A DNA stretch of 64,000 nt, taken from contig MGTX01000004.1 of assembly GCA_001799675.1 (NCBI GenBank), positions 157,591 to 221,590 on the forward strand. The letters run 5' to 3'. Under the pieces are notes generated by a model. The model did not search any database and had not been told where the DNA came from. It saw only the letters and a list, made by a program, of their open reading frames with translations. The position numbers and the translations under genes are program-made. The DNA is from Elusimicrobia bacterium GWA2_66_18. Lineage in GTDB: Bacteria; Elusimicrobiota; Elusimicrobia; UBA1565; UBA9628. This document shows, piece after piece, positions 13,001-55,013 of this stretch (the stretch's first letter is position 1; each line of letters opens with the position of its first letter).

Positions 13001-13606
13001 ATGCCCCACGCGAAAGGCCGCGCCCAGGCCCAGACGGAGAAGTCGGCTAATCCCTCCTACAAACGCGAGCAGTACTGGGTGGACGCTCCCCTCCAACTGC
13101 AGATGGTGGGCTTCGTGCTCATCCTGGTCTCGGCAAGCCTCTTGTTGACCGCGTTCAGCGTCTTCCGGGGCATGACGGAGGCCTCCATCCAATCGCGCCA
13201 GATCTTTCACTCCCTGGACTGGATCAAGGGCTCCCTGCGCGCCCCGCTCCTGCTGGCCTCGGCCATCTCGCTCTTGGCCAGCGGGCTGATGACGCTCTTC
13301 TGGTCTCACCGTTTCGCCGGCCCCTTGAGGGTCGTCTCCGCGGGCATCGCCCGAATGCGCCACGCCAACTTCGTCGTGCCGGTGCGCATCCGAGTGACCG
13401 ACGCCCACCAGGACTTCGCGCGCGAGTTCCAGGAGATGCAAGAAGAGCTGCGCAAGATGCTCGAAAGCGACCGGGCCCGCGTCCATGAGGCGAAAGCCCG
13501 CCTCGAGGCCGCCGAGAAGGCCTTCGCCGAGGGCGCCGACGCCCGCGGCGAGGTCGCCAAGGCCCTCTGCGAACTCCGGCACGCCTGCGCCAAATACCAC
13601 GTATGA
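13001..13606 (+). CDS. Membrane protein with a HAMP-like linker
   Basis: Two TM helices followed by SHRFAGPLRVVSAGIARMRHANFVVPVRIRVTDAHQDFAREFQEM and a coiled coil. Confidence 0.55.
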   Translation: MPHAKGRAQAQTEKSANPSYKREQYWVDAPLQLQMVGFVLILVSASLLLTAFSVFRGMTEASIQSRQIFHSLDWIKGSLRAPLLLASAISLLASGLMTLFWSHRFAGPLRVVSAGIARMRHANFVVPVRIRVTDAHQDFAREFQEMQEELRKMLESDRARVHEAKARLEAAEKAFAEGADARGEVAKALCELRHACAKYHV

Positions 13607-27302: not shown

Positions 27303-28547
27303 CTAAGGCTTGTAATAGCTTTCGCTCCAGCTTCCCCGCACCCAGCGTCCGTTGGCGCTCTCACCCGGGATGACGCCGAAATTGACGTCGAAGAAGAAGG
27401 TGGGATAAGCCACGCCGCCGGCGCCGTAGGGGTTGAGTATCCGAACCGTCTGGCCGACCACGCGCCCAAGAACTCGCTGATTGATGATGATGTCGTCCGC
27501 CGGGCAATAGAGGTCGATATAGGTCTTGTTGTCCGTCTTGGAGACCGCGGTGTAGCCGGAAACAGTCATCGTGCCGCCGCCCTGACCGTAGATGTGGACG
27601 TTATAGGCCCTACAGCCGCCGCCGGAGGCGATGCAGTGAAGGCTGCTGTCGATGGAACCTTGTGGACTGACGAAAAGGTTGCCGGCCAGGTAGATGGTGG
27701 CGACATCGGTGGGATTGTTTAAGTCGATCTTGAGGATCGCGCTCGAAACATTGATCCCCTTGAAATAGTAAGTACCCGAGCTCAAAGTGACGTTGCCGAT
27801 GGCCGGATTGACGGTGAGGATCATGGTCGTGGTGTTGTAGGCGGTAAAGGGGCTGATGTGGGCCGCGTTGTTGTCGTTGCTCGCCAGGAAAGCGCTTCCA
27901 TCCTCGATGGCCGCCGTGGAAGTCGTGAGCGCCAGAGAGACGCTCCCCGCGATGGTCGTCGCCGCGGGCGGCGTGCTCGTCTTGGTAGCGTAAATCGCAT
28001 CGCCGTTGATGCGGATCGCGCCGGCCGCCGTGATCACCGCGGTATTGGCGAGGACGTGCGCGCCGAACTGGCAGCCGTTGGAGTCCATAGCCGACAGCTT
28101 GCAGCTCGGCGTGCGGCCGGCGGTGGTGTTGGAATCATAGGCGGTCATGCCCCAGTTGACCGTGAAGGTGCTGGCGGAGAAATTCATGAAACCGCTGCGG
28201 GCCGCCTGAGCCTTGACGGTGCGCGCGGCGCGCCCCATGATGGGGATCGGCACGGAGTAGCCCGTGGAGGTGACCCAGGGCGCCTGGTCGGTGGAAAATG
28301 AAACCGTGTAGGATCCGCCCGCGAAGTTCTTCGAATAGGCGGTCTTCCAATTCGACGTAAGCTTGACTTTGTTCAGCCCGTCATCGAGGCCGGCCTCCGC
28401 GATGGCCTGGGCCTGGGCTTGGCGGGCCTCATAGACGGTCATGCGCACCTGGACGCGCAGCAGCGCGTAGGAGCCCGCGATCACGACGGCGAAGCCGAGG
28501 ACGGCCAGCACGGCGGCGGGCAAGGCGGCGCCGCGGCTTGAGTTCAT
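27303..28547 (-). CDS. PilX-like pilus-associated protein (414 aa)
   Basis: The N-terminus MNSSRGAALPAAVLAVLGFAVVIAGSYALL resembles the PilX N-terminal segment. Last gene of the pilus operon, with an ATGA-type overlap to the upstream pseudopilin. Confidence 0.5.
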   Translation of the reverse strand: MNSSRGAALPAAVLAVLGFAVVIAGSYALLRVQVRMTVYEARQAQAQAIAEAGLDDGLNKVKLTSNWKTAYSKNFAGGSYTVSFSTDQAPWVTSTGYSVPIPIMGRAARTVKAQAARSGFMNFSASTFTVNWGMTAYDSNTTAGRTPSCKLSAMDSNGCQFGAHVLANTAVITAAGAIRINGDAIYATKTSTPPAATTIAGSVSLALTTSTAAIEDGSAFLASNDNNAAHISPFTAYNTTTMILTVNPAIGNVTLSSGTYYFKGINVSSAILKIDLNNPTDVATIYLAGNLFVSPQGSIDSSLHCIASGGGCRAYNVHIYGQGGGTMTVSGYTAVSKTDNKTYIDLYCPADDIIINQRVLGRVVGQTVRILNPYGAGGVAYPTFFFDVNFGVIPGESANGRWVRGSWSESYYKP

Positions 28548-29104
28548 CGATTCCTCAACCAGGCTCCGGAGAGGATGCTGTAAGTCCTATCCTTGGAGGT
28601 CTTGCCCTGGACCGTCAAGACGAACTGGACGAGGGACGCATTGGACGCGGCGGTGGATTGGAAGATGAGGCCGCCGGCGTCGATCTCGAAATAGGAGACC
28701 GTCATGCTGGAGATGCCCGACGCCTGATCGTTGGCGAGGCCGCCCTCGGTCTTGACCAGGACGTTGGATGCGGCCACGCTGAAATCCACGTTCACCGGCC
28801 CCGGTACGACCAGTTCCAGGGTGGAGGTGGACAGCGAGCGCGCCTCCCTCGCCTCCTGGGCGGCCCAGACCATCCCGCGCTCGCCGCCCCAGTTCACCAA
28901 GGCCCGGCGGCTTTGCGCCAGCACCGCGCTTTGACGCGCGGTGTAGAGCGACCCCTTGGCCAGCGCCATGATCATGCGGGCGGCAACCAGGCCGGCCATG
29001 CCGAGGAGCAGCACGCCCACCATCAGCTCGGGGATCGTGAAGCCCCGGCTCAACGATTGGTTATGATGGTGTCGAGGCATATGGACTTTCGCTGCTTGCG
29101 CCAA
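28544..29104 (-). CDS. Minor pilin / pseudopilin with a prepilin N-terminal methylation site
   Basis: SLSRG|FTIPELMVGVLLLGMAGLV has G-1, F+1 and E+5. The start may be Met9 (29080). Confidence 0.7.
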   Translation of the reverse strand: MAQAAKVHMPRHHHNQSLSRGFTIPELMVGVLLLGMAGLVAARMIMALAKGSLYTARQSAVLAQSRRALVNWGGERGMVWAAQEAREARSLSTSTLELVVPGPVNVDFSVAASNVLVKTEGGLANDQASGISSMTVSYFEIDAGGLIFQSTAASNASLVQFVLTVQGKTSKDRTYSILSGAWLRNR

Positions 29105-29553
29105 CTGCAGATGGAGATCGCCTTGAAATCGGTCTTCGTGCCCGGAGACACGGGATCGAGGGTCGTGACGTCGACGTAGCGGACGGTGACGCTCGTGGTA
29201 TAGTCGGCGAACGCGCTCAAGACGTTCATGACCGGGTCGAGCGGCGGGCCCTCGGTCCAGGCTTGGAAGTCATCGATGTCGTCGAAGGTTCTCTTGTCGG
29301 AGGCGCTCTCCCCCGCGTCGAGGCCGACGGCGCTGCGGCTCTTCGTATAGTCGGACGGAGCGGGCGTGTTCTCGTCCCATCGGCGCAGGCGGACCTCTTC
29401 GAGCATCCTCTGGGAGAGATGGGTGGAAACGACCGAGGCCTCGCCGGCGGCGTTGGACTTCACCATCATGATGAGCGCCGCGTTGAGCGCGACCAGGGCG
29501 ACGCCGATGACGATCATCGTCAGCAGGGCTTCCAACAGCAGGAAACCCTTCAC
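29050..29553 (-). CDS. Minor pilin / pseudopilin (PilV/GspI-like)
   Basis: MKG|FLLLEALLTMIVIGVALVAL has G-1, F+1 and E+5. Confidence 0.7.
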   Translation of the reverse strand: MKGFLLLEALLTMIVIGVALVALNAALIMMVKSNAAGEASVVSTHLSQRMLEEVRLRRWDENTPAPSDYTKSRSAVGLDAGESASDKRTFDDIDDFQAWTEGPPLDPVMNVLSAFADYTTSVTVRYVDVTTLDPVSPGTKTDFKAISICSWRKQRKSICLDTIITNR

Positions 29554-29554
29554 G

Positions 29555-30196
29555 TTAGACGGACAAGTCGACGAGGTTATGCTTGATGGCGTAATACACC
29601 ACCTCGGCGTTGTTGCCCATGCCCATCTTCTGCAGGAGCCGGGCGCGGTTGGTGCTGACCGTCTTGACGCTCAGGCCCAGCTTCCGCGCGACCTCGGTCA
29701 CGCTGCGGCCCTGGGCGATGAACAGGAAGACCTGGTGCTCGCGGTTGGAAAGGGACTCGTGCGGCAGGCCCTCGCGCTTGCTCACGTCGGCGGCCAGGAA
29801 GTCGGCCAGCGCCGGGGTGATGTAGCGCGCGCCCGAGGCGACGGTCCTCACCGCTTCGACGAGTTTGGCGGGCGCGCTGTCCTTCGTGAGGTAGCCGGCG
29901 GCCCCCAGGCGCAGGGCGCGGACCGCGTACTGCTCCTCGGAGTATTCCGTCAGCACCAGCACCGGCAGGCGCGGGACATCGGCCTTGATCTGGCGCAGGG
30001 TCTCGAGCCCCCCCTGCCCCGGCATCGCAAGGTCGAGGGTGACGACGTCCCAACGCCGTCCGCCCCGGGACTTCATCATCATCTCCTCGCCCGTCTCGGC
30101 CTCATCGACGACGGCCATGTCCTTGGCGTCCGACAGAATCTGCCGGAGGCCGCAGCGAACGACGGGGTGGTCGTCGACGATGCAGACACGGATCAT
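29555..30196 (-). CDS. NarL/FixJ-type response regulator (REC + LuxR HTH)
   Basis: IVDDHPVV, VTLDLAMPG, GYLTKD, and the C-terminal LSNREHQVFLFIAQGRSVTEVARKLGLSVKTVSTNRARLLQKMG. Confidence 0.9.
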   Translation of the reverse strand: MIRVCIVDDHPVVRCGLRQILSDAKDMAVVDEAETGEEMMMKSRGGRRWDVVTLDLAMPGQGGLETLRQIKADVPRLPVLVLTEYSEEQYAVRALRLGAAGYLTKDSAPAKLVEAVRTVASGARYITPALADFLAADVSKREGLPHESLSNREHQVFLFIAQGRSVTEVARKLGLSVKTVSTNRARLLQKMGMGNNAEVVYYAIKHNLVDLSV

Positions 30197-30214
30197 CAGC
30201 CCTCCTCGCGCCCT

Positions 30215-30580
30215 TTAAGTCGGCACGAGGAGCGCCAACTTCTCCCGGATGACGTCCTTGGTGAAAGGCTTCGTGATAAAAACGTTGGCGCCGGCCTTGA
30301 TGGCTTTCTCCCGGTTATCGATATCGGTCTCGCTGGTCAACATCGCGATGGGGGTCGTCTTGAGCTTCTCGTCGGCGCGCATGGCCACGATAAATTCATA
30401 GCCGTTCATCTCGGGCATGTTCCAGTCCACGAGCACGGCAGTCAGCCCCACCTGGGACTTAGCCACCTCCAGCCCCACCTTGCCGTTGACGGCCTCTATG
30501 ACCTCGTGGCCCAGGTCCTTGAGCGCGGCTCCTATGATCTTCCTCATGGTCATAGAGTCATCAATCACCAATATCTTCAT
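30215..30580 (-). CDS. CheY-like single-domain response regulator
   Basis: Start at Met14 (MKILVIDDSMTMRK). Also VLVDWNMPEMNG, MLTSE and FITKPF. Confidence 0.85.
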   Translation of the reverse strand: MKILVIDDSMTMRKIIGAALKDLGHEVIEAVNGKVGLEVAKSQVGLTAVLVDWNMPEMNGYEFIVAMRADEKLKTTPIAMLTSETDIDNREKAIKAGANVFITKPFTKDVIREKLALLVPT

Positions 30581-30605
30581 TATGAATTCTCCGTTTGAGT
30601 GCGGT

Positions 30606-31823
30606 TCATTGTACCACACCTCCGAGCTGGAAGATGGGGATGAGCATCGAGATGGCGATGCCGCCGATGATGACTCCCAGGAAAACGACGAACATCGGCT
30701 CCAGGGCCGCGAAGAAATTGCGCATGGCCACGTCCACCTCGGCCTGGTAGTAGTCGGCGATGAAGGCGAGGGCCTCCGGCAGGCGCCCGCTCTTCTCCGC
30801 GCCCGCCACGACGTGCGCGACCATCTCCGGAATGTAATCGCTCGCGGCCAGGCTCGGCCATAGATTCTGGCCGGACTCGACCTGCGTGCGCATATGGCGG
30901 ATCACCCGCGCGATGACCTCGTTGCCGGCCGTCGCCTCGCAGAGATCCAGGCTCTTGAGAATGGGCACGTTCGCCCCGAGGAGCTCGCCGAGCGTGCGCA
31001 TGACGCGGGAGAGGACGATGCAGCGCACCAATTTGCCCGCGAAGGGCGCGGTCAGCATGAGCGTGTGGACGAGAAGGCGGTTGCGCTCCGCCTTCAGCCA
31101 CGCCCTCGCGCCGGCGATCGCGACGGCGGCGCCTCCCATCCAGATAACCCAATGGGCGCGCATGGCCCCCGAGAGCCAGATCAGGAACTTCGTCGAGATC
31201 GGGAGGGGCGCGTCGAACTGCTCGAAGACCTCGGCGAAGGTGGGAAGCACGAAGATGATCAGGCCCAGCACGACTAGGAAGGCCGTCCCCAGCACCACCG
31301 CCGGATAGACCATCGCCGAGTGGATGCGGGTGCGCACCCCCACCTTGAACTCGAGGTAACTCCTGATGCGCTCGAGCATCTTGGGGAGGGTCCCGCTGGC
31401 CTCCCCGGCCTCAAGAAGGCTCAGGTAGACGTTGTCGAAGACGTCGGGGTGGCGCCCGAAAGCGGCGGTCAGGCTGCTTCCGCCCCTGACCGCGTCGGCC
31501 ACGCTCTGAAGAGTCTCACGCAGGGCGGGGTTGGACTGCTGGCTGACGACGGTGGTCAGCGCGTCCAAGATCGGTATCGCCGCCCGGATCATCAAGGAGA
31601 GTTGGTTGTTGACGATCGCTACGTCCACGTCGCTCACGGCGTGCCGCCGGCCCATGCGCGCCACCCGGGGAGCTTGCGCGACCGGGGCCTGCGCCGGCTC
31701 CTTCTTATCGGATACGACCGAGACGGAGATCAGGAACTGGTTCTGCAGGCGCAGCATCTCGGTCAGGGCGGCCAGGTTAGCCGCGTTTGCCGAGCCCTCG
31801 CAGGCCTGGCCCCGCTTGTCCAT
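30606..31823 (-). CDS. Type IV pilus / T2SS platform protein (PilC/GspF family)
   Basis: 405 aa from the ATG at 31823. It has duplicated T2SSF domains (LSLMIRAAIPILDALTTV..., LGELLGANVPILKSLDLC...) and three TM segments. The rest of track ORF 30606..33263 is over-extension. Confidence 0.85.
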   Translation of the reverse strand: MDKRGQACEGSANAANLAALTEMLRLQNQFLISVSVVSDKKEPAQAPVAQAPRVARMGRRHAVSDVDVAIVNNQLSLMIRAAIPILDALTTVVSQQSNPALRETLQSVADAVRGGSSLTAAFGRHPDVFDNVYLSLLEAGEASGTLPKMLERIRSYLEFKVGVRTRIHSAMVYPAVVLGTAFLVVLGLIIFVLPTFAEVFEQFDAPLPISTKFLIWLSGAMRAHWVIWMGGAAVAIAGARAWLKAERNRLLVHTLMLTAPFAGKLVRCIVLSRVMRTLGELLGANVPILKSLDLCEATAGNEVIARVIRHMRTQVESGQNLWPSLAASDYIPEMVAHVVAGAEKSGRLPEALAFIADYYQAEVDVAMRNFFAALEPMFVVFLGVIIGGIAISMLIPIFQLGGVVQ

Positions 31824-31846
31824 GGTGCGGAACTTAAAGCGTGGAA

Positions 31847-33550
31847 TTAGCTCACCACCTGCGTCACGCGCAGGATCTCGTCTAGGCTCGTCGCCCCGCT
31901 CTCGGCCAGCGCGAGCGCCGACTCCTGGAGGGTGATCATCTTGTCGGCGCGCGCGGCGGCGCGCAGGTCGTCGAGACTGGCTCCCCGCATGATCCCATCG
32001 CGCGCGAGCGCGCCGAGGGAGAATATCTCGAAGACGGGGACGCGCCCGGCATAGCCGGTCTTGAAGCAGTCCTCGCAGCCGACGGCCGCCTGAAAGCGCT
32101 TGCCGTCGATGGCCGCGCCGAGAAGGGCGCGCTCCTCGGCCGTCGGCTCGGCGAAACGGCGGCAGGACTCGCACAGGCGCCGCAACAGGCGCTGGGCGAC
32201 GACCATGCGCAGGGCGGCCGCCAGCATGAAGGGCTGCACGCCCATGTTGAGCAGGCGGTGCACCGCGGCCACCGAGTCGTTGGTGTGGAGCGTGCTCATC
32301 ACCAGATGGCCGGTCACCGCGGCCTGCACGGCGATCTCCGCCGTCTCGATGTCTCGGATCTCGCCGACGAGCACGATGTTGGGATCCTGGCGCAGGATGG
32401 CCCGCAGACCGACGGCGAAGGTCAAGCCGGTCTTGGCGTTGGTCTCGACCTGGGTCAAACGGTCGATGCGGTACTCGACCGGGTCCTCCAGGGTGATGAT
32501 GTTCACCCTGGGAGTGTTGAGTTCGGACAGCGCGCTGAAGAGAGTGCTCGTCTTGCCGCTGCTCGTGGGGCCCGTGACCAGCACGAGACCGTTGGGCTGG
32601 TGGATGTTGACGCGAAAGCGCTGCGTCTGCTCCTCGGTCATGCCCAAATCGTCCACGCGTTTGAGCTTTCCGCTGAGGAGCAGACGCATCGTGATCTTCT
32701 CGCCGTAGATGGAGGGCAGCGTGGAAACGCGCACATCCATGGAAACCCCCTCTTCGAGTTCCTGGCGGAAGCGCCCATCCTGCGGGACGCGGGTCTCGGT
32801 GATGTCGAGCTTGGACAAAATCTTGATGCGCGCCGCGATCGTCGACTCCGCCTCCTTGGGCAGGGCGTGGGCGTCGAGGAGGACGCCGTCGATGCGATAG
32901 CGAACGCGCACCTTGTCCTTGGCCGACTCGATGTGAATGTCGCTGGCCTTGCGCGCGTAGCCCTCCCGCATGATGGACTCGACGGCGGCGATCGCGCCCT
33001 GATCGTCGACCGTTCCTTCGGGACGATTCTCCAGCTGCAGGACGAAATCCTCGACGGGCAGGTCGGCGACGAGTTGGGCGCCCGTGGCGAAGAGGTGGTC
33101 GAGGGCCTTGTCGAGGGCGGTGCGCGTGGTCAAGAGCGGCAGGACCTGCCCCCCCAGCTTGGCGCGGACCTGCGCCAGGCATTCCTCGTCGAGGGGGTCG
33201 ATCATCGCCAGCATGACCGTGTCGTCGGCCTTGCTCAGCGGGACCACCCCCATGCGCCGGCAATCCTCCTCCGGCAGGAGCTCCTTGACCGCTTGGTCCA
33301 TCACCGATTCGAGGCTGGTGAAATACGGCAGGCCCATCTTGAGGCTGACGACCTTAAGGAAGTCCTCATCGCCGAGCAGTCCGATGATGGACAGCACGGT
33401 GGGGAGATCTTCGCCCGTCTGGGTGCAGCGCTCCAGAGCCCGGGACAGGCCCGACTTGTCGATAACGCCTGACTCCAGCAGGATCGAGCCCAGCCGCGCG
33501 GCGTGCGAACTGGAAGCCTCTTGAGAAGGGGGGACGGACGGCTCGCTCAC
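31847..33550 (-). CDS. Type IV pilus / T2SS assembly ATPase (PilB/GspE family) with a T2SSE_N (MshEN-like) domain
   Basis: GTG start in a GTGA overlap with the upstream stop. Walker A GPTSSGKTST, Asp box/Walker B VGEIRD, His box TGHLVMSTLHTND, and tetracysteine CESC...CEDC. Confidence 0.9.
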   Translation of the reverse strand: MSEPSVPPSQEASSSHAARLGSILLESGVIDKSGLSRALERCTQTGEDLPTVLSIIGLLGDEDFLKVVSLKMGLPYFTSLESVMDQAVKELLPEEDCRRMGVVPLSKADDTVMLAMIDPLDEECLAQVRAKLGGQVLPLLTTRTALDKALDHLFATGAQLVADLPVEDFVLQLENRPEGTVDDQGAIAAVESIMREGYARKASDIHIESAKDKVRVRYRIDGVLLDAHALPKEAESTIAARIKILSKLDITETRVPQDGRFRQELEEGVSMDVRVSTLPSIYGEKITMRLLLSGKLKRVDDLGMTEEQTQRFRVNIHQPNGLVLVTGPTSSGKTSTLFSALSELNTPRVNIITLEDPVEYRIDRLTQVETNAKTGLTFAVGLRAILRQDPNIVLVGEIRDIETAEIAVQAAVTGHLVMSTLHTNDSVAAVHRLLNMGVQPFMLAAALRMVVAQRLLRRLCESCRRFAEPTAEERALLGAAIDGKRFQAAVGCEDCFKTGYAGRVPVFEIFSLGALARDGIMRGASLDDLRAAARADKMITLQESALALAESGATSLDEILRVTQVVS

Positions 33551-34275
33551 CGCTTGACACCCTGGGCGACGCTCCCGCGGATCAAGCGAGCCGCGGCCAC
33601 GAAGTCCACCGGCTTGAGAATGCGCTCCGCGTCGCCGATGCCGGCGCGCACGGCCTCGGCGGTATCCTGCACCAGCACGAAAAGCCTGCCGCCGCGCGCG
33701 AGTTGGACGCGCACGGCGCGGACGATGGCCGTCCCGTCGTTGCCCGTCGCCGCCAGGTCGAGAACCGCGAGGACGGGCGGCCGGCGCGCGGCCAGCGCCG
33801 CCGCGTCGATGCCGTCTGCGCAGCGCTCGGCCTCGAAGCCCCTGGTCTTGAGCATGCTCTCGAAGACGCGGGCCAGGGCTCCGTCGGCCGAGCAGACCAG
33901 CGCGCGGGGACGCGATGCCGCGTCGACGGCGGGAGCGGGGACGGTCCCCGGCCCCGCTCCTTGCAGCGCCGCGGGCGGCGGCCCCGCTACGTCGAGGGCC
34001 GCGCGCGCGACCAGGGCCTGGCGCGTCTCCTCGGCCTGACGCTCGAGGGCGACGAGACGCACGCGCAGCTCCTCCAAATCCTTGATCCGCCGCAAGGAGC
34101 TCTCCTCGCCGTGACGCCGCATCTCGCGCACGGCCGCGAGGCGACGCTCGCGCCAATAAGCGATGGCGGCCACGGTCAACACGAGGAGCAGCGCGGCGGT
34201 CGCCGCCCCTACGATGAAAGCGTCTCCATCCACGCCGAAGCCGGAGAGACGCAGCGCGAGCGCCTCGAAGCTCAC
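33547..34275 (-). CDS. Membrane-anchored coiled-coil protein with a C-terminal receiver (REC) domain
   Basis: TM helix FIVGAATAALLLVLTVAAIAYW and coiled coil IKDLEELRVRLVALERQAEE. The REC-like part is ALVCSADG...VLAVLDLAATGNDG...ILKPVD. Confidence 0.65.
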   Translation of the reverse strand: MSFEALALRLSGFGVDGDAFIVGAATAALLLVLTVAAIAYWRERRLAAVREMRRHGEESSLRRIKDLEELRVRLVALERQAEETRQALVARAALDVAGPPPAALQGAGPGTVPAPAVDAASRPRALVCSADGALARVFESMLKTRGFEAERCADGIDAAALAARRPPVLAVLDLAATGNDGTAIVRAVRVQLARGGRLFVLVQDTAEAVRAGIGDAERILKPVDFVAAARLIRGSVAQGVKR

Positions 34276-36929
34276 GCGATCCTCTGGCGCAAGGCCTCAT
34301 GCGCCGAGTCGTAACGGCAGACGAGTTCTCCGAAGACCACCGGCGCCTCGGCCGCCTGCCCCGCGCGGCCCATCTCCTCGAGATGCAGGCAGGCCTCCGC
34401 GACCAGGCGCGCGCCGACCGCGCGGCTGGAGCCCTTGAGCTTGTGCGCGGCCTTGCGTAGGTCCTCGCAGAGTCCGCCCATCACCGCGGACTCGATGAGG
34501 CGCATGCAGGCCGGAGCCTCGTCGTCAAGGTAGGACTTGACGATGTCCTTGACCAACTCGTCGCCGCCTCCCATCTCCTTGAGATCGGCGAGGACCTTTT
34601 CGTCGATGTCTCCCGTCGGCGCGGCGAAGGCGGGCGGGGCCGCGGCGGCGACCCGGGAGGAGGCCTGCGGCACGGCGCCCGGGACCGCGACGGCGGCCCC
34701 CCCCCCGAGCGCATCGGACTTAAGCCAGCGCGTGAGAGTCGCCAAGAGCTCGTGGGGGTTGACCGGCTTGGACAGATAGCCGTCCATGCCCGCGTCCAGA
34801 CAGCGCTTGCGGTCGCGCTTGAGCGCGTTGGCCGTCAGCGCGATGATGGGAATCCGCGGTCCGGCGCCCTCCAGGCGGCGGATCTCCGCCGTGGCCGTGT
34901 AGCCGTCCATCTCGGGCATATTGCAGTCCATGAGGATCAGGTCGTAGCGGCCGTCCTTGTAACGGCGCACCGCCTCGACCCCGTCGGGAGCGACGTCGGC
35001 GCGCACCCCCATCTTCTTGAGCATGAGCAGGGCGACCTTCTCGTTGACTTTGTCGTCCTCGGCGATGAGGATCCTCGCGCGGGCCCGCACATTCGCGGGC
35101 AAGCCCTCCGGCTTGGCGGCCGGGGCCATCAGGGCGCGCAGCTTCTCCTCGAATTCATCGGGCTTCAGGGGCTTGGAGAGGACCGCGTCGATTCCGGGGA
35201 TCGCCTCGTCCGACGCGTCCTTGTTCCCGCGCAGCATGAAGATCTTGGTCCGGGCAAGGAATGGGTAGGAGCGCGTCTTGCGTATGAGCTCCACGCACTC
35301 GTGCACGGGCAGCTCGTCGTTGAGGAAGACGACGCCGAAGGGACGGCCGCGGTTGGCCGCGTCGCTGAGGGAGACCAGGGCCTGCGCGGGCCCCGCGGCA
35401 CAGTCCGTCGACATCCCGAAGGTGACCAACTGGAGGTGGAGGAGGGACTGGCGCGTCGCATGGTCGCCCACGACCAGCGCGCGCCGGTTCTCGAGCCCCG
35501 TCGCGGCCCTCTTGGCCCCGGATAGGACGGGGAAAACCGTGGAAAACCAGAACGTCGCGCCTTCACCCGGCGTGCTGCGATAACCGATCGATCCGTTCAT
35601 CGTCTCGACCATGCGCTTGGCCACCGGTAGCCCCAGTCCCGCGCCGCCGTACTTGCGCGTGGTCACCCCGGCGCCGTGAGAGAAGGGCTGGAAGAGGTGG
35701 GCCTCCGCCTCAGGGGACACGCCGGTCCCCGAGTCTGAGACCGCAAAAACGAGCGTGACGCAGTCCTCCTTCTGGGACGATTTGGAAACCTGTACGGTGA
35801 TCTCTCCGGAATCCGTGAACTTGATCGCGTTGGAAATGAGGTGCAGGAGGACCCCCAATACGAGCTGGCGGTCGCCTCGAACCATGGGCGGGCAGTCCTC
35901 GCCGATCATGTAGGCGATCTCGAGTCCCTTCTTCTGCGTCGCCGGCGCGGCCGCGCGCACGGCCGCGGACACGACCTCGCGAACGTCCAGATCGCCGGGC
36001 TCGAAGGTCAGCGTACCGGACTGTCCCTCCCAGAACGTCATGATGCTCTGCAGCGTATTGAGAAGGTTCAGGGCGGACTGGCGCGCCGTCTCGACGAAAT
36101 CGCGCTGCTTATCGTCGAGGTCCGTGTCGAGGAGAGCCTCGGACATGCCGAGGACGCCGTTGAGCGGCGTACGGAGCTCGTGGCTCATGTTGACGAGGAA
36201 CTCGGACTTAAACTGCGAGGATATCCGCACCATCTCCTCGGCGGACGCCTTCTCCACCTCTTGGCGCAACCGCGCGCGGTCCGCGTCGTGCCAATCCAGG
36301 ACGCGCCGCTGCTGCTCCGCGAAGAGCCCGGCGCCCAGGACCAGTAAAGGCAGGCTCGAGTTCGGCGGCAGCGTCAGCATCGAGGCCTGCGCGCCCAGCG
36401 CGTCGAGACCCGGCATTCCGCGCAGGGCGGCCAATCCGGCCACGATCATGCCCGTCAAGGTGAGGAACTGCGCCGCCTGGTTGCCCACGGGAAGGGCCAG
36501 CATAAGAAGGGCGCAACCGAAAAGACCGACGGACAGCGCGCCGCTGAGACCCGCTCCGCCATAGGACGCGACCCCGGCCCACGCCAGGGGGCCAGACAGA
36601 TCGCGGCCGAAAACAGCCCCCAAGGACTGCGCCCCGCACCAGGCGACGGCCAGCGAGGCTGCGGCGGCGGCCCAACGGCGCCAGCGGGAGCCCTCCGACT
36701 GGCGAAGCCAAAGGGCGCAGCCGCCGAGGGCGGCGGGCAGCACCGCGGCGCCGTCGGCGTCCGGACCAGGCAGTCCCAGGTGGCGCAGGAAACAGACCGC
36801 TCCCCACAGGACGCACCCCCCTCCCGCCAGACGCACCCACAGAGAGAGCGCGGCCCTTGCCCCAACCGGGCGGGGCGCGCGGGTCGCCGCTCCCTGGCCA
36901 GGATGACGACTGGCGATTGTCTCTCTCAT
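34272..36929 (-). CDS. Hybrid sensor histidine kinase (multi-TM sensor, HisKA, HATPase, pseudo-REC, REC, Hpt)
   Basis: Start at Met16 (TAATG overlap with the pilin stop). H-box MSHELRTPLNG, N-box LISNAIKFT, G-boxes DSGTGV and GGAGLGL. REC is LIAEDDKVN...LILMDCNMPEMDG...LSKPV and Hpt is AAHKLKGSS. Confidence 0.9.
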   Translation of the reverse strand: MRETIASRHPGQGAATRAPRPVGARAALSLWVRLAGGGCVLWGAVCFLRHLGLPGPDADGAAVLPAALGGCALWLRQSEGSRWRRWAAAAASLAVAWCGAQSLGAVFGRDLSGPLAWAGVASYGGAGLSGALSVGLFGCALLMLALPVGNQAAQFLTLTGMIVAGLAALRGMPGLDALGAQASMLTLPPNSSLPLLVLGAGLFAEQQRRVLDWHDADRARLRQEVEKASAEEMVRISSQFKSEFLVNMSHELRTPLNGVLGMSEALLDTDLDDKQRDFVETARQSALNLLNTLQSIMTFWEGQSGTLTFEPGDLDVREVVSAAVRAAAPATQKKGLEIAYMIGEDCPPMVRGDRQLVLGVLLHLISNAIKFTDSGEITVQVSKSSQKEDCVTLVFAVSDSGTGVSPEAEAHLFQPFSHGAGVTTRKYGGAGLGLPVAKRMVETMNGSIGYRSTPGEGATFWFSTVFPVLSGAKRAATGLENRRALVVGDHATRQSLLHLQLVTFGMSTDCAAGPAQALVSLSDAANRGRPFGVVFLNDELPVHECVELIRKTRSYPFLARTKIFMLRGNKDASDEAIPGIDAVLSKPLKPDEFEEKLRALMAPAAKPEGLPANVRARARILIAEDDKVNEKVALLMLKKMGVRADVAPDGVEAVRRYKDGRYDLILMDCNMPEMDGYTATAEIRRLEGAGPRIPIIALTANALKRDRKRCLDAGMDGYLSKPVNPHELLATLTRWLKSDALGGGAAVAVPGAVPQASSRVAAAAPPAFAAPTGDIDEKVLADLKEMGGGDELVKDIVKSYLDDEAPACMRLIESAVMGGLCEDLRKAAHKLKGSSRAVGARLVAEACLHLEEMGRAGQAAEAPVVFGELVCRYDSAHEALRQRIA

Positions 36930-37354
36930 TAGTAATTCGTCCAGACCGAGCCCTTCGCGTCGGTATGCGTGCAATTGACGTGTATCGCTCCGAAAGCCGT
37001 CGTATTTGGAATGTTGTTGTAAACCCAGCCCCCCGTGTCGTCGGAGTCAGCGGCATTGAGCACTGTGCTGGAATCAGAATGATAACCCGGCAACCTGGCC
37101 GGGGCGATGCGCCGCAGGTAACGCGACGACTGCGTCAGCGTGGGGAGATCGTCAGGATACTGCCCCTCCATGTCGCCGTAATATACGCTCAGCGCCTTTC
37201 GAATCGTCCCCAGGCTGCCCTTCGTATATCCTTCGGTGGATAAACGCAGGCTATCGCTGAAATGAGGAATGATGACCGCGGCCAATATCGCAATGATCGC
37301 GACGACCACCATAAGCTCGATGAGGGTAAATCCCGAATTCCTTATTTTAACCAT
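36929..37354 (-). CDS. Type IV (major) pilin / GspG-like pseudopilin
   Basis: MVKIRNSG|FTLIELMVVVAIIAILAAVIIP is a class III signal with G-1, F+1 and E+5. First gene of the operon, with AAGG 6 nt upstream of the ATG. Confidence 0.9.
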   Translation of the reverse strand: MVKIRNSGFTLIELMVVVAIIAILAAVIIPHFSDSLRLSTEGYTKGSLGTIRKALSVYYGDMEGQYPDDLPTLTQSSRYLRRIAPARLPGYHSDSSTVLNAADSDDTGGWVYNNIPNTTAFGAIHVNCTHTDAKGSVWTNY

Positions 37355-37400
37355 GTACCTTAAGTATGCTGGAAAACGAACGGAGAGCGCTATGAGAATT

Positions 37401-37480
37401 TATGGCTAAATAATATAGGCTAAAATAAACAGTAATATAGGCATATTCCTACATGCCGACCTGCATTAGAGCCTAAAGCC
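37401..37480 (-). promoter_or_regulatory. AT-rich repeat-bearing region upstream of the pilin operon
   Basis: TAATATAGGC occurs twice (37411-37420 and 37433-37442, 22 bp apart). GGCTAAA / GCCTAAA-type motifs lie at about 37404, 37418 and 37471. This is a sharply AT-rich island in a GC-rich genome, 50-120 nt upstream of the pilin ATG. Confidence 0.45.
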
Positions 37481-37556
37481 TATCTCAGAACCCCGCCGCG
37501 CGGAAGACGCGGATGAGGTCCGTCTGCGTGGTCGGCATCGCTGTCGATACTGCTCC

Positions 37557-40487
37557 TCATCTCGACGGGGATGCTGAAGCCGCCTCTTTTTTGGCCGCGG
37601 CCGCCATCGCGGTTTTCTTGGCCCCCTGCTTCTGAAGTTTTCCGAATTCAACCTGGTTGTTCTTGAAGTTCTTGACCTGCTCCGGAGAAAGACTCTTGAA
37701 CATCTCCTCTCTCAGGGGCACCCGGACTCCCTCGATCTTCAGTTCCCGGGCGATCTGCTCGTCGATGGCGAAGCTCTCGGGGCGGCCGATCGTCTTTAAA
37801 AAATCATGCGTCCTCGTCTGTAGGTCGTTCGCGCCGAGCTTGATGCCGACATTGTTCATCTCGTTGGCCAAACCCCGCACGGCGGCCTGGGCCGACTTCG
37901 AATCCTCCATATAGAAGCTGGACTTATCCGCGTATTCGCTGAGCATCGCTCCGGCGCGCATCGCAAACGCCCTTTGCTCGGGCGGAAGGTCGCTGATCAT
38001 CTTCTTATACGTCTCGACGGGGGAGGTTTCCTTGTAGCCTGAAGGGCGCGGCTTCGCGTCGAAAGGAAACTCGGTCCTCATGATGATGGTCTTCGCCGTC
38101 TGGAACTGCTCGTCGGTCCAGCCCAAACGCGCCTTGAGGCCGACGTTATTGGCGTCCATCCATTCCAAGGTCGCGGGGACCCGGGCGGGCGTGCCCGGTT
38201 TTCTCGTGGGGTCGACGTCATGCAGCCTGGCGACGTCGCCGAGGAATTTTTCCCGGCCCGGAAACCGGTCTTTTGCCAGTTGTTCCATCATTCTCCCGAC
38301 CTCCAGAGAATGCTCCGCGCTGTGGTATATGTCGGCGCCTTCGAGTTCCGGGTGCAGGTTCTTCCATTCCTCGGCGGTGAAGCTGATATCCTCCGCCGGC
38401 TGCTTTGGGCCGGCCAGGCGTTGCGTCAAGCTGGTCATGGCGCGCGCGACCTGGCTGGTCGTCACCATATCGATCGCAATCGACTTGAAGCTGAGCCCGG
38501 CCGCGCCGGGCTCTGGGGCCCGACCCGTCGGCACCAGCCCAAGGCCGAGAAGCTGGGCGCCCGCGTCGATCATGCCTCGCTCGTCTTTCTTGGCGAGCGC
38601 ATCCATGCCGACGAGGCCTTGCTGGCCGGCCATCGACAAAAGGAAGCCTTTGACGGCTTTCCCGCCGGCGTCCGCGACCACGGCCAGCCTGGTTGCTTCC
38701 GCGCCCTTGGCGAGCAAGCCGGACGCCCCGCCCAGCACCCCGAATCCAAAGCTTTGAATGGTGTAGTCGGCGGCGTATAGGACCGCGGCGCCCAGGCCGT
38801 TGGCGACCTTGCCGCCGGTCGTCGGCGAATTCACGGCCGCGTCCACGAAGCGCTTGGGAGCGCCTGCAAAGCCCTCCTGAAGGCTGCCGTCCATCAGCCG
38901 ACGGCCGAGTTCCTCGTCTGAAAGATCGAGCTTCCGATTCCTAAGAGCGACGGCTTGGGTCGGAGTCGCACTGGCGATCTCATCCTTGCGATACATCTCC
39001 AGCCATTCGCCTTTGCGCCGTTCGAATTTTTCAGGGCCTAGCTTCTCGCGCAATTCGTCGACCGCCGCCGTTCCCGCGCCGCTGAAATAATTGATGGCCT
39101 GATATTTCGAGATGACGCCGTAAACGGCGTGTTCCTCGCTTCCCGTCAGCGCGCCGACGAGCCGGCTCGTGCCGGCGGTCAGCGCGTAGCCGATGGTCTT
39201 TCCCACCCCCGCCACGACGGCGACCGCCCGGCCGGCTTCTTTAAAGCCGTGCACCTTTTCGAACAGAGAGCCCGCCTTCTGCGACGCGTAGGTCAGAACG
39301 CCGTCATCCGGCGGGCGTTTCGAGGCGACCTCCTTCATCTGCTTGCCGTCCCACTCCAGGCGCGTGTAGGCGGTCTCCTCGGCGCTGCGGAAACCCTTGT
39401 CCACGCTGTAACGGGTGACATACGCGGTCTCATAACGCTCGATCCGCATCGGTCGTCCTGTTTTTGGGTCGTCTTGCGATATCTCGACCTTCTCATGCCT
39501 GCGTCCGTCGGGCCATTCGGTGACCGTCGAGTCGATCCAATCCAACCGACCGCCTCTGAAGCCGGAGATGTAAGTCGTCGTCGCGCGGCCGTTCGATATC
39601 TGATAGACCAAAGCAGGCTGCCCATCCGCGCCGCCCGGGATGAGCCTCGGGGGGAGGCTGAAGTCTTTGCCTGCAAGAGCGGCGAGCCGGGATTGAAATC
39701 GCAGGAACTCATTTTTCCGCAGGACGCCGGCGTCCAGCAGGCCCGTGAGATCCGGCGAGAGGAGGCGGTGCCGCTCTTCCCGAGCTTTGCGCTGGAGGGC
39801 TTCCGGCAGGAAAGGCAGCTGCTCGGCCACAGCCCACCCGGCATCTTGAGCCGAAAAGCGCGCCGCCGCAACCGCGGGCTTGGTTTTCGCGGGCATGTCC
39901 AACCTGTTGAGGGCTTCGTTTTTTGATCCCCTGAGATCGTTGATGGAGACGGCCGGCTTCAGCGGCCGGGTGTCGTTCCCGGCGTCCTCACCCGAGCCGG
40001 CCGGAGGAGCGGGCCAATCGGCTGGCGCCGGCGGGCGGGCGCCGTCGAAGATGCGCGAGGCATCGTCGGTCGGCGGGCGGGCGGCGGCGCCGGCCTTCGC
40101 CATCGCCGCGTGGAGCCTGAGATATTTTTCAACCGCGGCGTCCGTTTGCGTTTCGGAAAAACCTAAGCCGGCCGCGACTCCTCTGACCTGGGCGCAGAGG
40201 GCGGGGGGCTCGGCGGCTGGAATATCCGTTAGAAGAGCGTCATAGCGGCGCGCTTTCGCCTGGAATTCGTTCCAGGCTGCATCAATCTCGGTGGTGGACT
40301 TGGAGGCTTTGATCTCCCGCTCAAGAACGGCTGAATCGACCCGCAAAAGAGTCGCCGCCGCGAAATTCTCTTTAAGAGCGTCGCAAGCCCGATTGATCTT
40401 CGCGGATAATTCGGCCCCCGGCTCGGTCGCCATGCCGGGCAGGACGATAAGAAAAACGACAAACGCCCGCAGGGCTTTTCCCAGCAT
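37557..40487 (-). CDS. Exported 976-aa hypothetical protein with a C-terminal HD-like motif
   Basis: Start at Met147 gives MLGKALRAFVVFLIVLPGMA. The central region is Gly/Ala-rich and hydrophobic. The C-terminal part has YHSAEHSLEVGRMM...LGDVARLHDVDP (an H...HD pattern). The tail is Lys/Ala-rich. Confidence 0.6.
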   Translation of the reverse strand: MLGKALRAFVVFLIVLPGMATEPGAELSAKINRACDALKENFAAATLLRVDSAVLEREIKASKSTTEIDAAWNEFQAKARRYDALLTDIPAAEPPALCAQVRGVAAGLGFSETQTDAAVEKYLRLHAAMAKAGAAARPPTDDASRIFDGARPPAPADWPAPPAGSGEDAGNDTRPLKPAVSINDLRGSKNEALNRLDMPAKTKPAVAAARFSAQDAGWAVAEQLPFLPEALQRKAREERHRLLSPDLTGLLDAGVLRKNEFLRFQSRLAALAGKDFSLPPRLIPGGADGQPALVYQISNGRATTTYISGFRGGRLDWIDSTVTEWPDGRRHEKVEISQDDPKTGRPMRIERYETAYVTRYSVDKGFRSAEETAYTRLEWDGKQMKEVASKRPPDDGVLTYASQKAGSLFEKVHGFKEAGRAVAVVAGVGKTIGYALTAGTSRLVGALTGSEEHAVYGVISKYQAINYFSGAGTAAVDELREKLGPEKFERRKGEWLEMYRKDEIASATPTQAVALRNRKLDLSDEELGRRLMDGSLQEGFAGAPKRFVDAAVNSPTTGGKVANGLGAAVLYAADYTIQSFGFGVLGGASGLLAKGAEATRLAVVADAGGKAVKGFLLSMAGQQGLVGMDALAKKDERGMIDAGAQLLGLGLVPTGRAPEPGAAGLSFKSIAIDMVTTSQVARAMTSLTQRLAGPKQPAEDISFTAEEWKNLHPELEGADIYHSAEHSLEVGRMMEQLAKDRFPGREKFLGDVARLHDVDPTRKPGTPARVPATLEWMDANNVGLKARLGWTDEQFQTAKTIIMRTEFPFDAKPRPSGYKETSPVETYKKMISDLPPEQRAFAMRAGAMLSEYADKSSFYMEDSKSAQAAVRGLANEMNNVGIKLGANDLQTRTHDFLKTIGRPESFAIDEQIARELKIEGVRVPLREEMFKSLSPEQVKNFKNNQVEFGKLQKQGAKKTAMAAAAKKEAASASPSR

Positions 40488-40549: not shown

Positions 40550-41506
40550 CTAAAAGCCGGCCTTCATGGAGTACTGCATCACGTCCCCGAGCCTGCCTCC
40601 CGGCATCCACGAGAAATCCCCGTCCAAGCCGCGCCAGGACGCCCCGAAGCCGAATGAGACCCCGCCGAGCCCCCCCGCGTCCCTGCGCTCCGAGCGCCAG
40701 CCGGCGCGCGCCGCCGCGCTCAGACCGGGAGCCGCGCGCACGCGGTACTCCGAGCCGCACGAGAGGATCATCGCGTCCTGACGGGGCAGGTCCGCCTCGG
40801 CTACGGCCAGCCACTGCCCCCGCCTCCAGGACGCCGCGCCGTAGGCGACGAACGGCAGGGAGTCGGCGTAAGAGCCCAGACGCAGGCGCCCGAAGGCGTT
40901 TCGCACGCCGCCGGCCGCCGTCCAATCCCCGAACCGCCAGAGCGCGCCCAGGTCCGCGGTGAGCGCGGTCGCCCGCGCCGAGTCGAGAGAGGACTCCACC
41001 AGCTTCGCTGCGGCCCCCAGGGCCAGCTTGGCGCCCGGAACGGCGACGCCATAGGAGAGAGCGTAGGCTCGGTCGGCGGCGCCGAAGGTCCCGGCCGCCG
41101 CGTCGGTCTCCACGAGGCCCCGGCGTTCGATGCCCGACGCCGAGAGGCTGTAGACCGAGACCGCCGCCGTCCCGTAGTCCGAAACGCGGCGCGTCTTGTC
41201 CGTCCAGGCCAGCACGGGCGCCGAGAGGACGGCGTAGTCGTAGGAGAGGCCCTCGAAGCGAGCCTCGTGACCGCCCGCCGCCTCCACGCGGTCCAGCAGC
41301 CCCAGCCCGGCCGGGTTGTAGTGCGTGGCCAGGGAGTCGCCCTCCACCGCGCCGTAGGCGCCTCCCAGGGCCGACGCGCGCGCGCCCGGGGTCAGGCGCA
41401 GGAAGGCCGCCGCGGCCGTGCCCTTGCCCGAGGAAGAAGATGAGGCGGGAGCGGCGGCCAGAGCCGCCAGGACGAGGGAGAACGGCGCGATCAGGGCGCG
41501 CCTCAT
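40550..41506 (-). CDS. PorV-like outer-membrane beta-barrel protein
   Basis: ATGA overlap with the stop of the giant gene. Signal peptide MRRALIAPFSLVLAALAAAPA. The N-terminal motif AAAFLRLTPGARASALGGAYGAVEGDSLATHYNPAGLG resembles the PorV/LptO family. Alternating beta-strand pattern, C-terminal residue Phe. Confidence 0.65.
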   Translation of the reverse strand: MRRALIAPFSLVLAALAAAPASSSSSGKGTAAAAFLRLTPGARASALGGAYGAVEGDSLATHYNPAGLGLLDRVEAAGGHEARFEGLSYDYAVLSAPVLAWTDKTRRVSDYGTAAVSVYSLSASGIERRGLVETDAAAGTFGAADRAYALSYGVAVPGAKLALGAAAKLVESSLDSARATALTADLGALWRFGDWTAAGGVRNAFGRLRLGSYADSLPFVAYGAASWRRGQWLAVAEADLPRQDAMILSCGSEYRVRAAPGLSAAARAGWRSERRDAGGLGGVSFGFGASWRGLDGDFSWMPGGRLGDVMQYSMKAGF

Positions 41507-54819: not shown

Positions 54820-55013
54820 AGGATCGGGGATCTACGCGGCTTGCGACAGACATTACCAATTATTTACTGGCTTTCCCAAGGCCGCCCAACTATACTACCG
54901 ACAGACCAAAATCTCAATCTTTGGGCTCCCTCGGAAGCACGGTATCCGGGGTTATGGCACTCATAGGTGCCGCCTCCGACAACGTCACCGATGTCGGAAA
55001 AAGGATCGATGGT

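Follow-up and report, generated by a model that had tools for sequence, protein, structure and literature searches.

Genes for type IVa pili (T4aP) are normally spread over several loci and, beside the named types of type IV filament, 884 'generic' clusters of ATPase, platform and pilin genes have been recognised that fit none of them (Denise et al. 2019, PMC6668835). In free-living Elusimicrobiota, a phylum survey reported PilTABCDQM alongside Che genes, flagella being absent (bioRxiv 10.1101/2022.07.08.499144). For Pseudomonas, no direct contact of PilG or PilH with the extension ATPase PilB is reported (PMC11656802). How bacteria control the timing and the site of activity of the pilus extension motor is an open question. 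To our knowledge, response regulators that bind PilB are known from cyanobacteria only. The locus in question lies in a 64,000-nucleotide stretch of Elusimicrobia bacterium GWA2_66_18 (contig MGTX01000004.1), referred to below as the window, and occupies positions 27303-37354 on the minus strand. On a modest balance of probability, this operon is a regulator-rich, paralogous cassette of pilin, motor and tip belonging to an Elusimicrobiota T4aP-like cluster, which borrows the prepilin peptidase PilD and probably PilM and the secretin as well.

The ten genes form one tightly linked run with high third-position G+C. From 5' to 3' they encode a major prepilin, a hybrid histidine kinase, a membrane-anchored protein with a receiver (REC) domain, PilB, the platform protein PilC, a CheY-like REC protein, a NarL-type response regulator, two minor prepilins (pp1 and pp2) and a large minor pilin (g10) (Table 1). 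The junctions measure, in this order, -1, -4, -4, +23, +25, +18, +1, -31 and -4 nucleotides (nt), so that each gene overlaps the next by 1-31 nt or is separated from it by a gap of no more than 25 nt; an earlier reading of the same DNA from its letters alone, called here the sequence-only reading, had described this chaining correctly. Start codons of the ten genes were set by inspection, and the same ten genes are present, with identical proteins, in independent gene calls on three public assemblies. The gene identities proposed by that reading also stand for all ten, with one refinement: for the protein it called 'PilX-like' (g10), tip pilin of GspK/ComZ type, bearing a beta-solenoid-like domain, is the better description.

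The position of the sensory genes inside the structural operon, already pointed out in the sequence-only reading, is borne out and is conserved in relatives. The nearest relatives in GTDB are three Elusimicrobiota bins (loci L004, L005 and L006), with PilB proteins 71-82% identical to that of the window. The order pilin, hybrid kinase, membrane REC, PilB, PilC is retained in these nearest relatives: L004 and L005 keep the whole pilin-to-g10 block; L006 is truncated at the 5' end, within the gene for the membrane REC, and keeps the part from that gene to g10. In L005 the CheY-like and NarL-type genes follow g10 rather than precede pp1. As the block is kept in all three loci, the kinase and receiver genes are evidently no recent insertion; their absence from close relatives, which would have spoken against the embedding, is not observed.

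Homologues of PilB fall into identity bands of 63-82% (same subclade), 45-53% (other Elusimicrobiota) and about 40% (PilB of Firmicutes and Acidobacteria, GspE of Omnitrophota). The genomic context was examined for seven proteins of the 45-53% band which, with the window and its three close relatives, gives 11 loci sampled through PilB. A core of REC, PilB, PilC, pp1, pp2 and g10 is conserved across PilB identities of 45-82% and is found in six of the seven loci of the 45-53% band. Locus L014 has its minor pilins with pilin and kinase on the opposite strand, and the locus L013 comprises kinase, PilB and PilC and lacks minor pilins. In 10 of the 11 clade loci, the pilB start lies a few bases at most from the end of a REC-domain gene, whose place is taken in L013 by the hybrid kinase. 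Among PilB/GspE loci of other phyla the same arrangement occurs in 1 of 80. These 80 loci come from a scan with the alignment of the PilB clade which picked up universal Walker and Asp-box patterns; it was useless as a way of finding relatives, yielding only loci of other phyla, and its output served instead as a reference panel labelled by context.

A hybrid kinase or Hpt gene adjoins the core in the window, L004, L005, L013, L014, L016, L017, L102 and the P0016 locus. The type of input varies: a hybrid kinase with Hpt in the window, L004, L005, L013 and L102, an Hpt-REC fusion in L016, and a kinase, a separate Hpt and a REC in the P0016 locus. The kinase lies downstream in L017 and on the other strand in L014, and Che genes flank both L014 and the P0016 locus. 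The PilB-PilC-pp1-pp2-g10 core is also seen in L108, a contig of 64% G+C labelled Candidatus Endomicrobium trichonymphae. This label is not relied on: the G+C is far above the low value which we take to be typical of that organism, and the contig is probably mis-binned.

The sequence-only reading had noted that PilQ/GspD, PilM/N/O/P, PilD/GspO and PilT are missing from the 64 kb, and this holds even when lineage-specific queries for PilM, secretin and PilD are used. Among the Pfam hits of all called genes in the window and in about 7.6 kb beyond its left edge, there is no Secretin, PilM/N/O/P, Peptidase_A24 or second T2SSE gene. Searches with phmmer give no match in the window to GspC/D/L/M/O of E. 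coli, and none in the window or in any window-type locus to PilM, secretin and PilD of Elusimicrobiota. PilT, which would appear as a second T2SSE-family gene, is found neither in the window nor in any clade locus examined. Absence from the window cannot mean absence from the genome, since prepilins need a peptidase. Because the operon encodes canonical prepilin leaders and the window has no A24 peptidase, this enzyme must be encoded outside the window and the operon is, on that reasoning, not self-sufficient.

Fuller versions of the locus exist in the same clade. A scan with a PilB of the sister subclade (P0021) led to L106 and L107, in which the REC-PilB-PilC-pp1-pp2-g10 core is followed directly by genes for PilM (530 amino acids (aa); PilM_2, up to 112 bits) and a secretin (471 aa; Secretin, 155 bits, with Secretin_N and N0). 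On the 5' side of the core, L107 carries a pilin, an A24 peptidase (A24_N_bact, 118 bits) and a second pilin. PilM and secretin genes stand after a complete core in L106/L109, L107/L115 and L112, the last of which repeats the entire layout. L110 and L111, truncated on their upstream side, retain just the downstream part. The fuller locus thus has the order (PilD, pilins), a 417-aa protein, REC, PilB, PilC, pp1, pp2, g10, PilM, secretin and a YfhO-like protein. One bin, binchicken_co186_163, holds both a window-type operon (L005) and a fuller locus (L106), with G+C contents of 66.4% and 67.2% and a tetranucleotide correlation of 0.98. The idea of a system working without secretin, alignment protein and peptidase is therefore not upheld: sister loci carry PilM and secretin, L107 also carries PilD, and the prepilin leaders need a peptidase. 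Moreover, in a close relative the parts missing from the operon are encoded in a second locus (L106, in the bin of L005), a situation which the sequence-only reading had listed as part of what would refute it; that second locus has its own motor paralogue.

Two side observations concern these fuller loci. Their PilM proteins of about 530 aa (L106 6865-8463; L107 ~13290-14861) consist of a PilM_2 region of about 350 aa and a C-terminal extension of about 170 aa, which may stand in for separate PilN and PilO proteins. In L106, L107 and L112 the gene after that of the secretin encodes the YfhO-like membrane protein, for which the only Pfam match is weak and C-terminal; shorter loci hold fragments of it.

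An Elusimicrobiota T4aP-like machine with variably linked genes is the simplest account of these data. It is not a stripped-down new machine, since related loci encode the 'missing' channel, alignment and peptidase genes. The operon would supply the filament (the major pilin), a priming tip complex (pp1, pp2 and g10) and its own motor and platform, PilB and PilC. A PilM-type alignment protein and a secretin, encoded directly after the same core in sister loci, would most likely be provided from elsewhere, as would a retraction ATPase, if one is used at all. The hybrid kinase is predicted to autophosphorylate at H250 and to pass the phosphoryl group through D668 to H829 in its Hpt domain. From there it could reach the NarL/GacA-type regulator, with the operon or other genes as putative targets of transcriptional control, and the canonical CheY-like receiver. 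Action on the motor itself, by recruiting or gating PilB at the membrane, would fall to the receiver encoded by the gene that overlaps pilB, although in the window subclade the degenerate, membrane-anchored form may be an adaptor instead of a phospho-switch. In sister loci, the canonical pilB-linked receiver would be the obvious end point of the adjacent kinase and Hpt genes. Gene content, gene order, domain identities and the conserved REC-pilB linkage are established here; the routes of phosphotransfer, a contact between REC and PilB, and shared use of PilD, PilM and secretin are what we infer.

A more ambitious version of this account can be put forward tentatively. It supposes a phylum-wide design in which a receiver translationally coupled to PilB is fed by a phosphorelay, so that phosphotransfer gates pilus assembly directly, and in which some genomes alternate two paralogous cassettes on a shared PilM-secretin conduit, the window operon being a signal-selected alternative filament. 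We regard it as possible but improbable as a whole.

Several observations weigh against the cassette account or parts of it. The pilB-coupled REC of the window subclade is without the Mg-binding acidic pair and the Thr/Ser, which weakens direct phospho-gating here. The co-binning of L005 and L106 could be an error, as all high-G+C Elusimicrobiota loci correlate at 0.97-0.99, and a scan with the L106 and L107 secretins hit seven Elusimicrobiota contigs, none of them from the L004 or L006 bins. The fuller loci carry their own PilB and PilC, and the window operon may pair with something else or with nothing; the sharing of one secretin and one PilM between two paralogous motors is a proposal. The search in the host itself covered the window and about 7.6 kb adjoining its left edge. 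In the ATPase tree, the deep node that places Elusimicrobiota PilB has a support of only 34%. Finally, as regards a single transcript, a scan of the operon for sigma-70 promoters and terminators gives counts at or below those of shuffled sequences.

Other explanations of the same gene content have to be weighed. The operon might encode a self-contained minimal type IV filament, that is, a short periplasmic or envelope pseudopilus, switched by a phosphorelay, which does without secretin, alignment complex and retraction ATPase and borrows a peptidase only. Neither PilT nor a secretin or peptidase lies within 10 kb in any of the 11 clade loci, against 52 of the 80 loci from other phyla; the major pilin is GspG-like, as in pseudopili; the pilin-to-g10 block is conserved as a unit and its flanks are not; and the 884 generic clusters recognised by Denise et al. 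(PMC6668835) provide a precedent. This explanation is nevertheless unlikely. Sister loci have PilM and secretin directly after the same core, one bin holds both types of locus, and PilQ, PilM and PilT are reported in Elusimicrobiota. The need for PilD is already a dependence on unlinked genes, and a purely periplasmic filament fits badly with a tip pilin of 414 aa that carries a solenoid receptor domain.

That same tip pilin invites the idea of a dedicated DNA-uptake (competence) pilus in which a ComZ-like tip is the DNA receptor and the phosphorelay induces competence. The only significant structural match of g10 is indeed ComZ, the DNA-binding pilin of Thermus thermophilus, and retraction independent of PilT is documented in other systems (PMC6668835). 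We consider such a pilus quite unlikely, given that a TM-score of 0.29 at 10% identity indicates a shared architecture and not a shared function, that the window has no ComEA, ComEC or DprA, and that the same family of tip pilin occurs in every clade locus, the fuller ones included. Export by a pseudopilus like that of a type II secretion system (T2SS), with the adjoining giant surface proteins as substrates (a 3542-aa protein and the Ig- and dockerin-like proteins beyond it), is very improbable. Neither L004 nor L005 has the giant-gene cluster beside its operon, GspC, D, L and M are missing from the window, and the N-terminal domain of the ATPase is of PilB/MshE type and not the GspL-binding N1 of GspE, the PilB model also outscoring the GspE model. 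A different export route for the giant protein is indicated by its C-terminal FlgD_ig-type domain and the weak PorV-like barrel encoded next to it. What speaks for T2SS-like export is the GspG-like N-terminal half of the pilin, a minor pilin order and sizes suggesting a GspI/J/K-like trio, GspF as the top NCBIfam model for the platform, and the presence of large secreted proteins directly upstream on the same strand. T2SS-like loci also precede giant genes in Omnitrophota, but those loci include gspD (bioRxiv 10.1101/2023.11.21.568195).

The paralogous T4aP-like cassette remains the preferred account, and two of its aspects are new: the conserved integration of a phosphorelay into the operon of a pilus motor, including a phylum-wide coupling of pilB to a receiver gene, and the likely presence of two motor-filament cassettes in one genome. 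Where a receiver gene is translationally coupled to pilB and kinase and Hpt genes lie alongside, the motor is a candidate for direct phospho-control in a compact, genetically defined setting. The suggestion of a distinct, signal-gated subtype made in the sequence-only reading keeps its support from the separate PilB and PilC clades and from the conserved embedding of the signalling genes, and is not supported in making the system free of secretin, alignment protein and peptidase. There is a caution here for genome mining: a cluster without these three components resembled a minimal subtype, and the parts were found in paralogous loci of the clade.

The motor protein PilB combines an MshEN-type N-terminal domain, an ATPase core and a CxxC...CxxC motif. 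It scores 520 bits with the NCBIfam PilB model TIGR02538 (cut-off 675.65) and 492 bits with the GspE model TIGR02533 (cut-off 630); the latter match runs only from residue 97 onward, the N-terminus being MshEN. The cyclic di-GMP motif of this N-domain is partial (24.6 bits against a cut-off of 38), the closing Gln of motif 1 being replaced by Cys. Among PDB structures, Thermus PilF and the PilB proteins of Geobacter and Myxococcus come nearest and, for the ATPase core alone, GspE is almost as near. PilC scores 310 bits with the GspF model (cut-off 424) and 272 and 264 bits with PilC models (cut-off 700), and its top PDB match is M. xanthus PilC. In a neighbour-joining tree of 126 ATPase sequences (530 columns, 100 bootstraps, PilT as outgroup), Elusimicrobiota PilB proteins form one clade (bootstrap 100) outside the PilB-PilT-PilC groups and the secretin-linked groups, a placement whose deep node has 34% support only. 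PilC likewise belongs to a phylum-specific clade (neighbour-joining bootstrap 95), nearest by distance to sequences from a T4aP context. Neither protein falls firmly inside a sampled T4aP or T2SS clade, in agreement with the sequence-only reading, for which such a placement would have been adverse. Because other phyla also form clades of their own in the tree, the separate Elusimicrobiota clade is what a deep phylum would give and alone is no evidence for a new subtype.

In the hybrid kinase, a hydrophobic N-terminal region (residues ~1-220), with two to three membrane segments according to a 19-residue hydropathy scan, is followed by HisKA (H250), HATPase, a degenerate REC, a REC (D668) and Hpt (H829). 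Its best NCBIfam model is BarA (356 bits against a cut-off of 890), and orthologues are present in L004, L005, L013, L014 and L017. The NarL-type regulator finds its best NCBIfam model in UvrY/SirA/GacA (187 bits, cut-off 280). The CheY-like REC, with orthologues in L005, L006 and L013, has the canonical DD, D, T and K residues and an aromatic switch residue; CheY is its best NCBIfam model (85 bits, below cut-off). Of the three candidate D2 acceptors proposed in the sequence-only reading, one of them transcriptional, the CheY-like and NarL-type receivers are canonical and make credible acceptors, and the site of the third, the membrane REC, is degenerate. A gene for a REC-HisKA_3-HATPase kinase lies between PilC or CheY and the NarL-type regulator in L004 (12926-14299) and L013 (7953-9362), where it would make up a kinase-to-kinase cascade. 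Since the window is without this gene, its NarL-type regulator would have lost its usual HisKA_3 partner.

The membrane REC protein is made up of a transmembrane helix, a long helix, a disordered Pro/Ala linker and the REC domain, and its gene shares 4 nt with the end of the kinase gene and 4 nt with the start of pilB. An AlphaFold2 model shows a (beta-alpha)5 fold with five strands and five helices (pLDDT ~88 over residues 124-236). Only 11 full-length homologues occur among 5.8 billion proteins. Alignment to the canonical RECs upstream of pilB in L014-L017 shows that D173 and K221 are kept and that the DD pair and the T/S are lost. The pilB-linked REC of distant loci has the full set of DD, D, S/T and K, and the window subclade has gained the transmembrane and long helices. 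Because both Mg-binding acidic residues and the Thr/Ser are lost, this protein is a doubtful phospho-acceptor; in the window subclade a role as adaptor is more likely.

The window contains three prepilin motifs, all inside the operon. Leaders of the type G|FxxxE are present in the pilin, pp1 and pp2, and N_methyl is matched by the pilin and pp2. The major prepilin (leader MVKIRNSG|FTLIE, a single Cys) has a GspG-like N-terminal half (YxxDxxGxYP), which matches NCBIfam GspG over residues 7-69 at 39.6 bits, below the cut-off of 88.85, and aligns by hhalign with residues 6-68 of E. coli GspG at 97% probability. Its orthologues are in L004, L005 and L014. The protein pp1 has a weak PilV match (25 bits, NCBIfam) and a conserved WDE...FDDIDDF motif, and is kept at 32-70% identity in all sister loci, with pp2 directly after it there too. 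Its family, which has the motif WDE...FDD(V/I)DDF(N)GW, is broad: 1.84 billion representatives hold about 1000 of its clusters at 50% identity. In a scan of 50 members, N_methyl is matched by 27, and the globular part of none has a matching Pfam model. Profile comparison does not assign pp1 or pp2 to GspI or GspJ: the pilin, pp1, pp2 and g10 align with E. coli GspG-K and PpdD over the N-terminal helices only, except for the pilin with GspG.

The last protein, g10, is without Glu5, like GspK and PilX. Its AlphaFold2 model, based on 17 homologues (mean pLDDT 78), has a long N-terminal helix, a small pilin-like sheet and a beta-rich, solenoid-like C-terminal domain. Foldseek against the PDB gives Thermus ComZ (6qvi) as the sole significant match (E = 8e-5, probability 1.0). 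ComZ of Thermus thermophilus is a DNA-binding competence pilin with a GspK-like fold and an inserted beta-solenoid, proposed to sit at the pilus tip (PMC6561018). A GspK-like fold is thereby implied for g10 as well. Gene order, protein sizes and this fold match suggest that pp1, pp2 and g10 form a GspI/J/K-like or PilV/W/X-like priming and tip complex carrying a receptor domain.

Upstream of the pilin gene, CCTATATTAT is common to the 5' regions of the window (37355-37480) and L004, and the window, L004 and L005 share a GCATACT(T) element that precedes the pilin start by 8-18 nt; either may be a promoter element or a regulator site. A search for sigma-54 patterns gives 32 matches against 50 expected, none of them upstream of the pilin.

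Further upstream, on the same strand, lies a run of genes for envelope proteins, separated from the pilin gene by that of a signal-peptide protein with no Pfam match and no homologue in the related loci examined. The giant protein of this run and the PorV-like barrel protein look like a cargo with its outer-membrane shuttle. A link between the operon and the giant-protein cluster was considered and rejected, as the cluster is not upstream of the pilin in L004 and L005. The only tie of the 407-aa protein to related loci is a 27% match over 134 residues in L017. Three large surface proteins are encoded beyond on the plus strand, where G+C drops to 46-48% at 58-62 kb, compared with about 68% elsewhere in the window, which suggests foreign or atypical DNA. 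An Rfam scan of the window finds two tRNAs only; they are adjacent and lie beside a phage-integrase fragment and an ORF6N gene. Just beyond the left edge of the window (L100/L101) lie two genes for CheX, one for a lone REC and one for an S8 peptidase that ends in FlgD_ig; chemotaxis-type signalling parts thus occur near the window, with no flagellar genes in view.

Table 1. Features of the operon and of its surroundings (window coordinates; bit scores are Pfam scores unless another source is named)
Feature	Position	Strand	Size and characteristics
Major prepilin	36929..37354	-	141 aa; N_methyl 36 bits
Unorthodox hybrid histidine kinase	34272..36929	-	885 aa; HisKA, HATPase_c, two Response_reg stretches, Hpt
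Membrane-anchored REC	33547..34275	-	242 aa; Response_reg 18 bits only
Extension ATPase PilB	31847..33550	-	567 aa, GTG start; T2SSE 387 bits, MshEN 56 bits
Inner-membrane platform PilC/GspF	30606..31823	-	405 aa; T2SSF, two stretches, 177 bits
Single-domain CheY-like REC	30215..30580	-	121 aa; Response_reg 87 bits
NarL/GacA-type response regulator	29555..30196	-	213 aa; Response_reg 99 bits, GerE 54 bits (LuxR-type helix-turn-helix)
Minor prepilin pp1	29050..29553	-	167 aa; leader KG|FLLLE; no Pfam family
Minor prepilin pp2	28544..29080	-	178 aa; leader RG|FTIPE; N_methyl, with TIGR02532 at 19 bits
Large tip-type minor pilin g10	27303..28547	-	414 aa; leader RG|AALP; weak DUF7305 match
AT-rich 5' region, putative promoter/leader	37355..37556	-	two copies of GCCTATATTA; GCATACT(T) just before start codon
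Signal-peptide protein	37557-40487	-	976 aa; between giant cluster and pilin gene
Run of envelope-protein genes	40550-54769	-	upstream of operon; comprises the next four rows
318-aa protein	40550-41506	-	weak UPF0164 (PorV-like barrel) match
Gly-rich giant protein	41503-52131	-	3542 aa; CarboxypepD_reg domains, C-terminal FlgD_ig
407-aa signal-peptide protein	52131-53354	-	upstream run
FecR-domain protein	53351-54769	-	upstream run
Surface protein 1	within 54954-64000	+	He_PIG and dockerin-like domain
Surface protein 2	within 54954-64000	+	weak dockerin-like match
Surface protein 3	within 54954-64000, runs off window	+	>1403 aa; GHL15, Big_7, fn3, Big_3_3
Two adjacent tRNA genes	1241-1399		beside phage-integrase fragment and ORF6N gene

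Among described systems, the T4aP clusters of the pilB-pilT-pilC-pilS-pilR-pilA type, known from Myxococcus, Geobacter and Acidobacteria and making up most of the 80 sampled loci, are among the closest. Like these, the window encodes a PilB with MshEN-type N-domain and tetracysteine motif, a PilC platform, a major pilin with class III signal peptide and priming minor pilins, and in both cases two-component genes are found among the structural genes. In T4aP clusters, however, the latter are PilS and the sigma-54 regulator PilR, whereas the window has a BarA-like hybrid kinase with Hpt, a NarL-type regulator and single-domain receivers. The window also differs by the absence of PilT next to PilB, of PilM/N/O/P with PilQ and of PilD, by the translational coupling of a REC gene to pilB, and by PilB and PilC proteins that score below the equivalog cut-offs and form a phylum-specific clade. 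The fuller Elusimicrobiota locus shares with the window the same core and the same protein clades, and occurs in the same bin as a window-type operon. Compared with it, the window operon is without PilM, secretin and PilD and adds its own major pilin at the head, the hybrid kinase, the membrane anchor of the REC, the CheY-like REC and the NarL-type regulator. By gene content, the operon agrees with the definition of a 'generic' type IV filament cluster, that is, ATPase, platform and major pilin (PMC6668835).

With the T2SS pseudopilus the operon shares a pilin that is GspG-like in its N-terminal half, though below the model cut-off, three minor pilins of which the last is without Glu5, as is GspK, and GspF as top platform model. 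Nevertheless, the window has no match to GspC, D, L, M or H, its ATPase has an MshEN N-terminus of PilB/MshE type in place of the N1 domain of GspE, and g10 has a beta-solenoid-like domain where GspK has a helical insert. For the Com pilus of monoderms, the ComGA model gives 245 bits (cut-off 300) and the ComGB model 113 bits (cut-off 240); for the Tad/Flp pilus, the TadA-family model gives 41 bits (cut-off 373) and the pilin leader is GFxxxE, not Flp. As to the MSH (mannose-sensitive haemagglutinin) pilus, an MshEN domain is present, its cyclic di-GMP motif scores below the cut-off, and no other Msh genes are seen. The Thermus ComZ/PilA2 locus (PMC6561018) similarly has a large pilin of GspK fold with a beta-solenoid, encoded beside small minor pilins and proposed as a pilus cap. 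It differs in having no motor or signalling genes, and the likeness of g10 to ComZ, at 10% identity and a TM-score of 0.29, is one of fold only.

On the side of signalling, the BarA/UvrY (GacS/GacA) pair likewise joins an H1-D1-H2 kinase to a regulator of the NarL/GacA family, and BarA and UvrY are the best NCBIfam models for the window proteins. With 356 bits against 890 and 187 against 280, the likeness is one of layout and not of orthologue-level membership. The window has, in addition, a degenerate receiver between kinase core and REC and two further receivers, and its input region is a hydrophobic membrane region with neither a HAMP match nor a large periplasmic loop. From the Pil-Chp system, characterised by CheA, MCP, CheW and PilG/PilH, the window has a CheY-like REC only, and its input is a hybrid kinase with Hpt and not a CheA/MCP array. 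REC proteins, single-domain or larger, that are fed by a phosphorelay and govern the place and time of extension ATPase activity are nonetheless known from Pseudomonas (PilG/PilH, PMC11656802) and from Synechocystis, where PATAN-REC and CheY-like proteins bind PilB1 (bioRxiv 10.1101/2021.06.11.447907). The Elusimicrobiota arrangement differs from both in that the receiver, whose contact with PilB is putative, is encoded by a gene overlapping pilB, in a position kept across the phylum.

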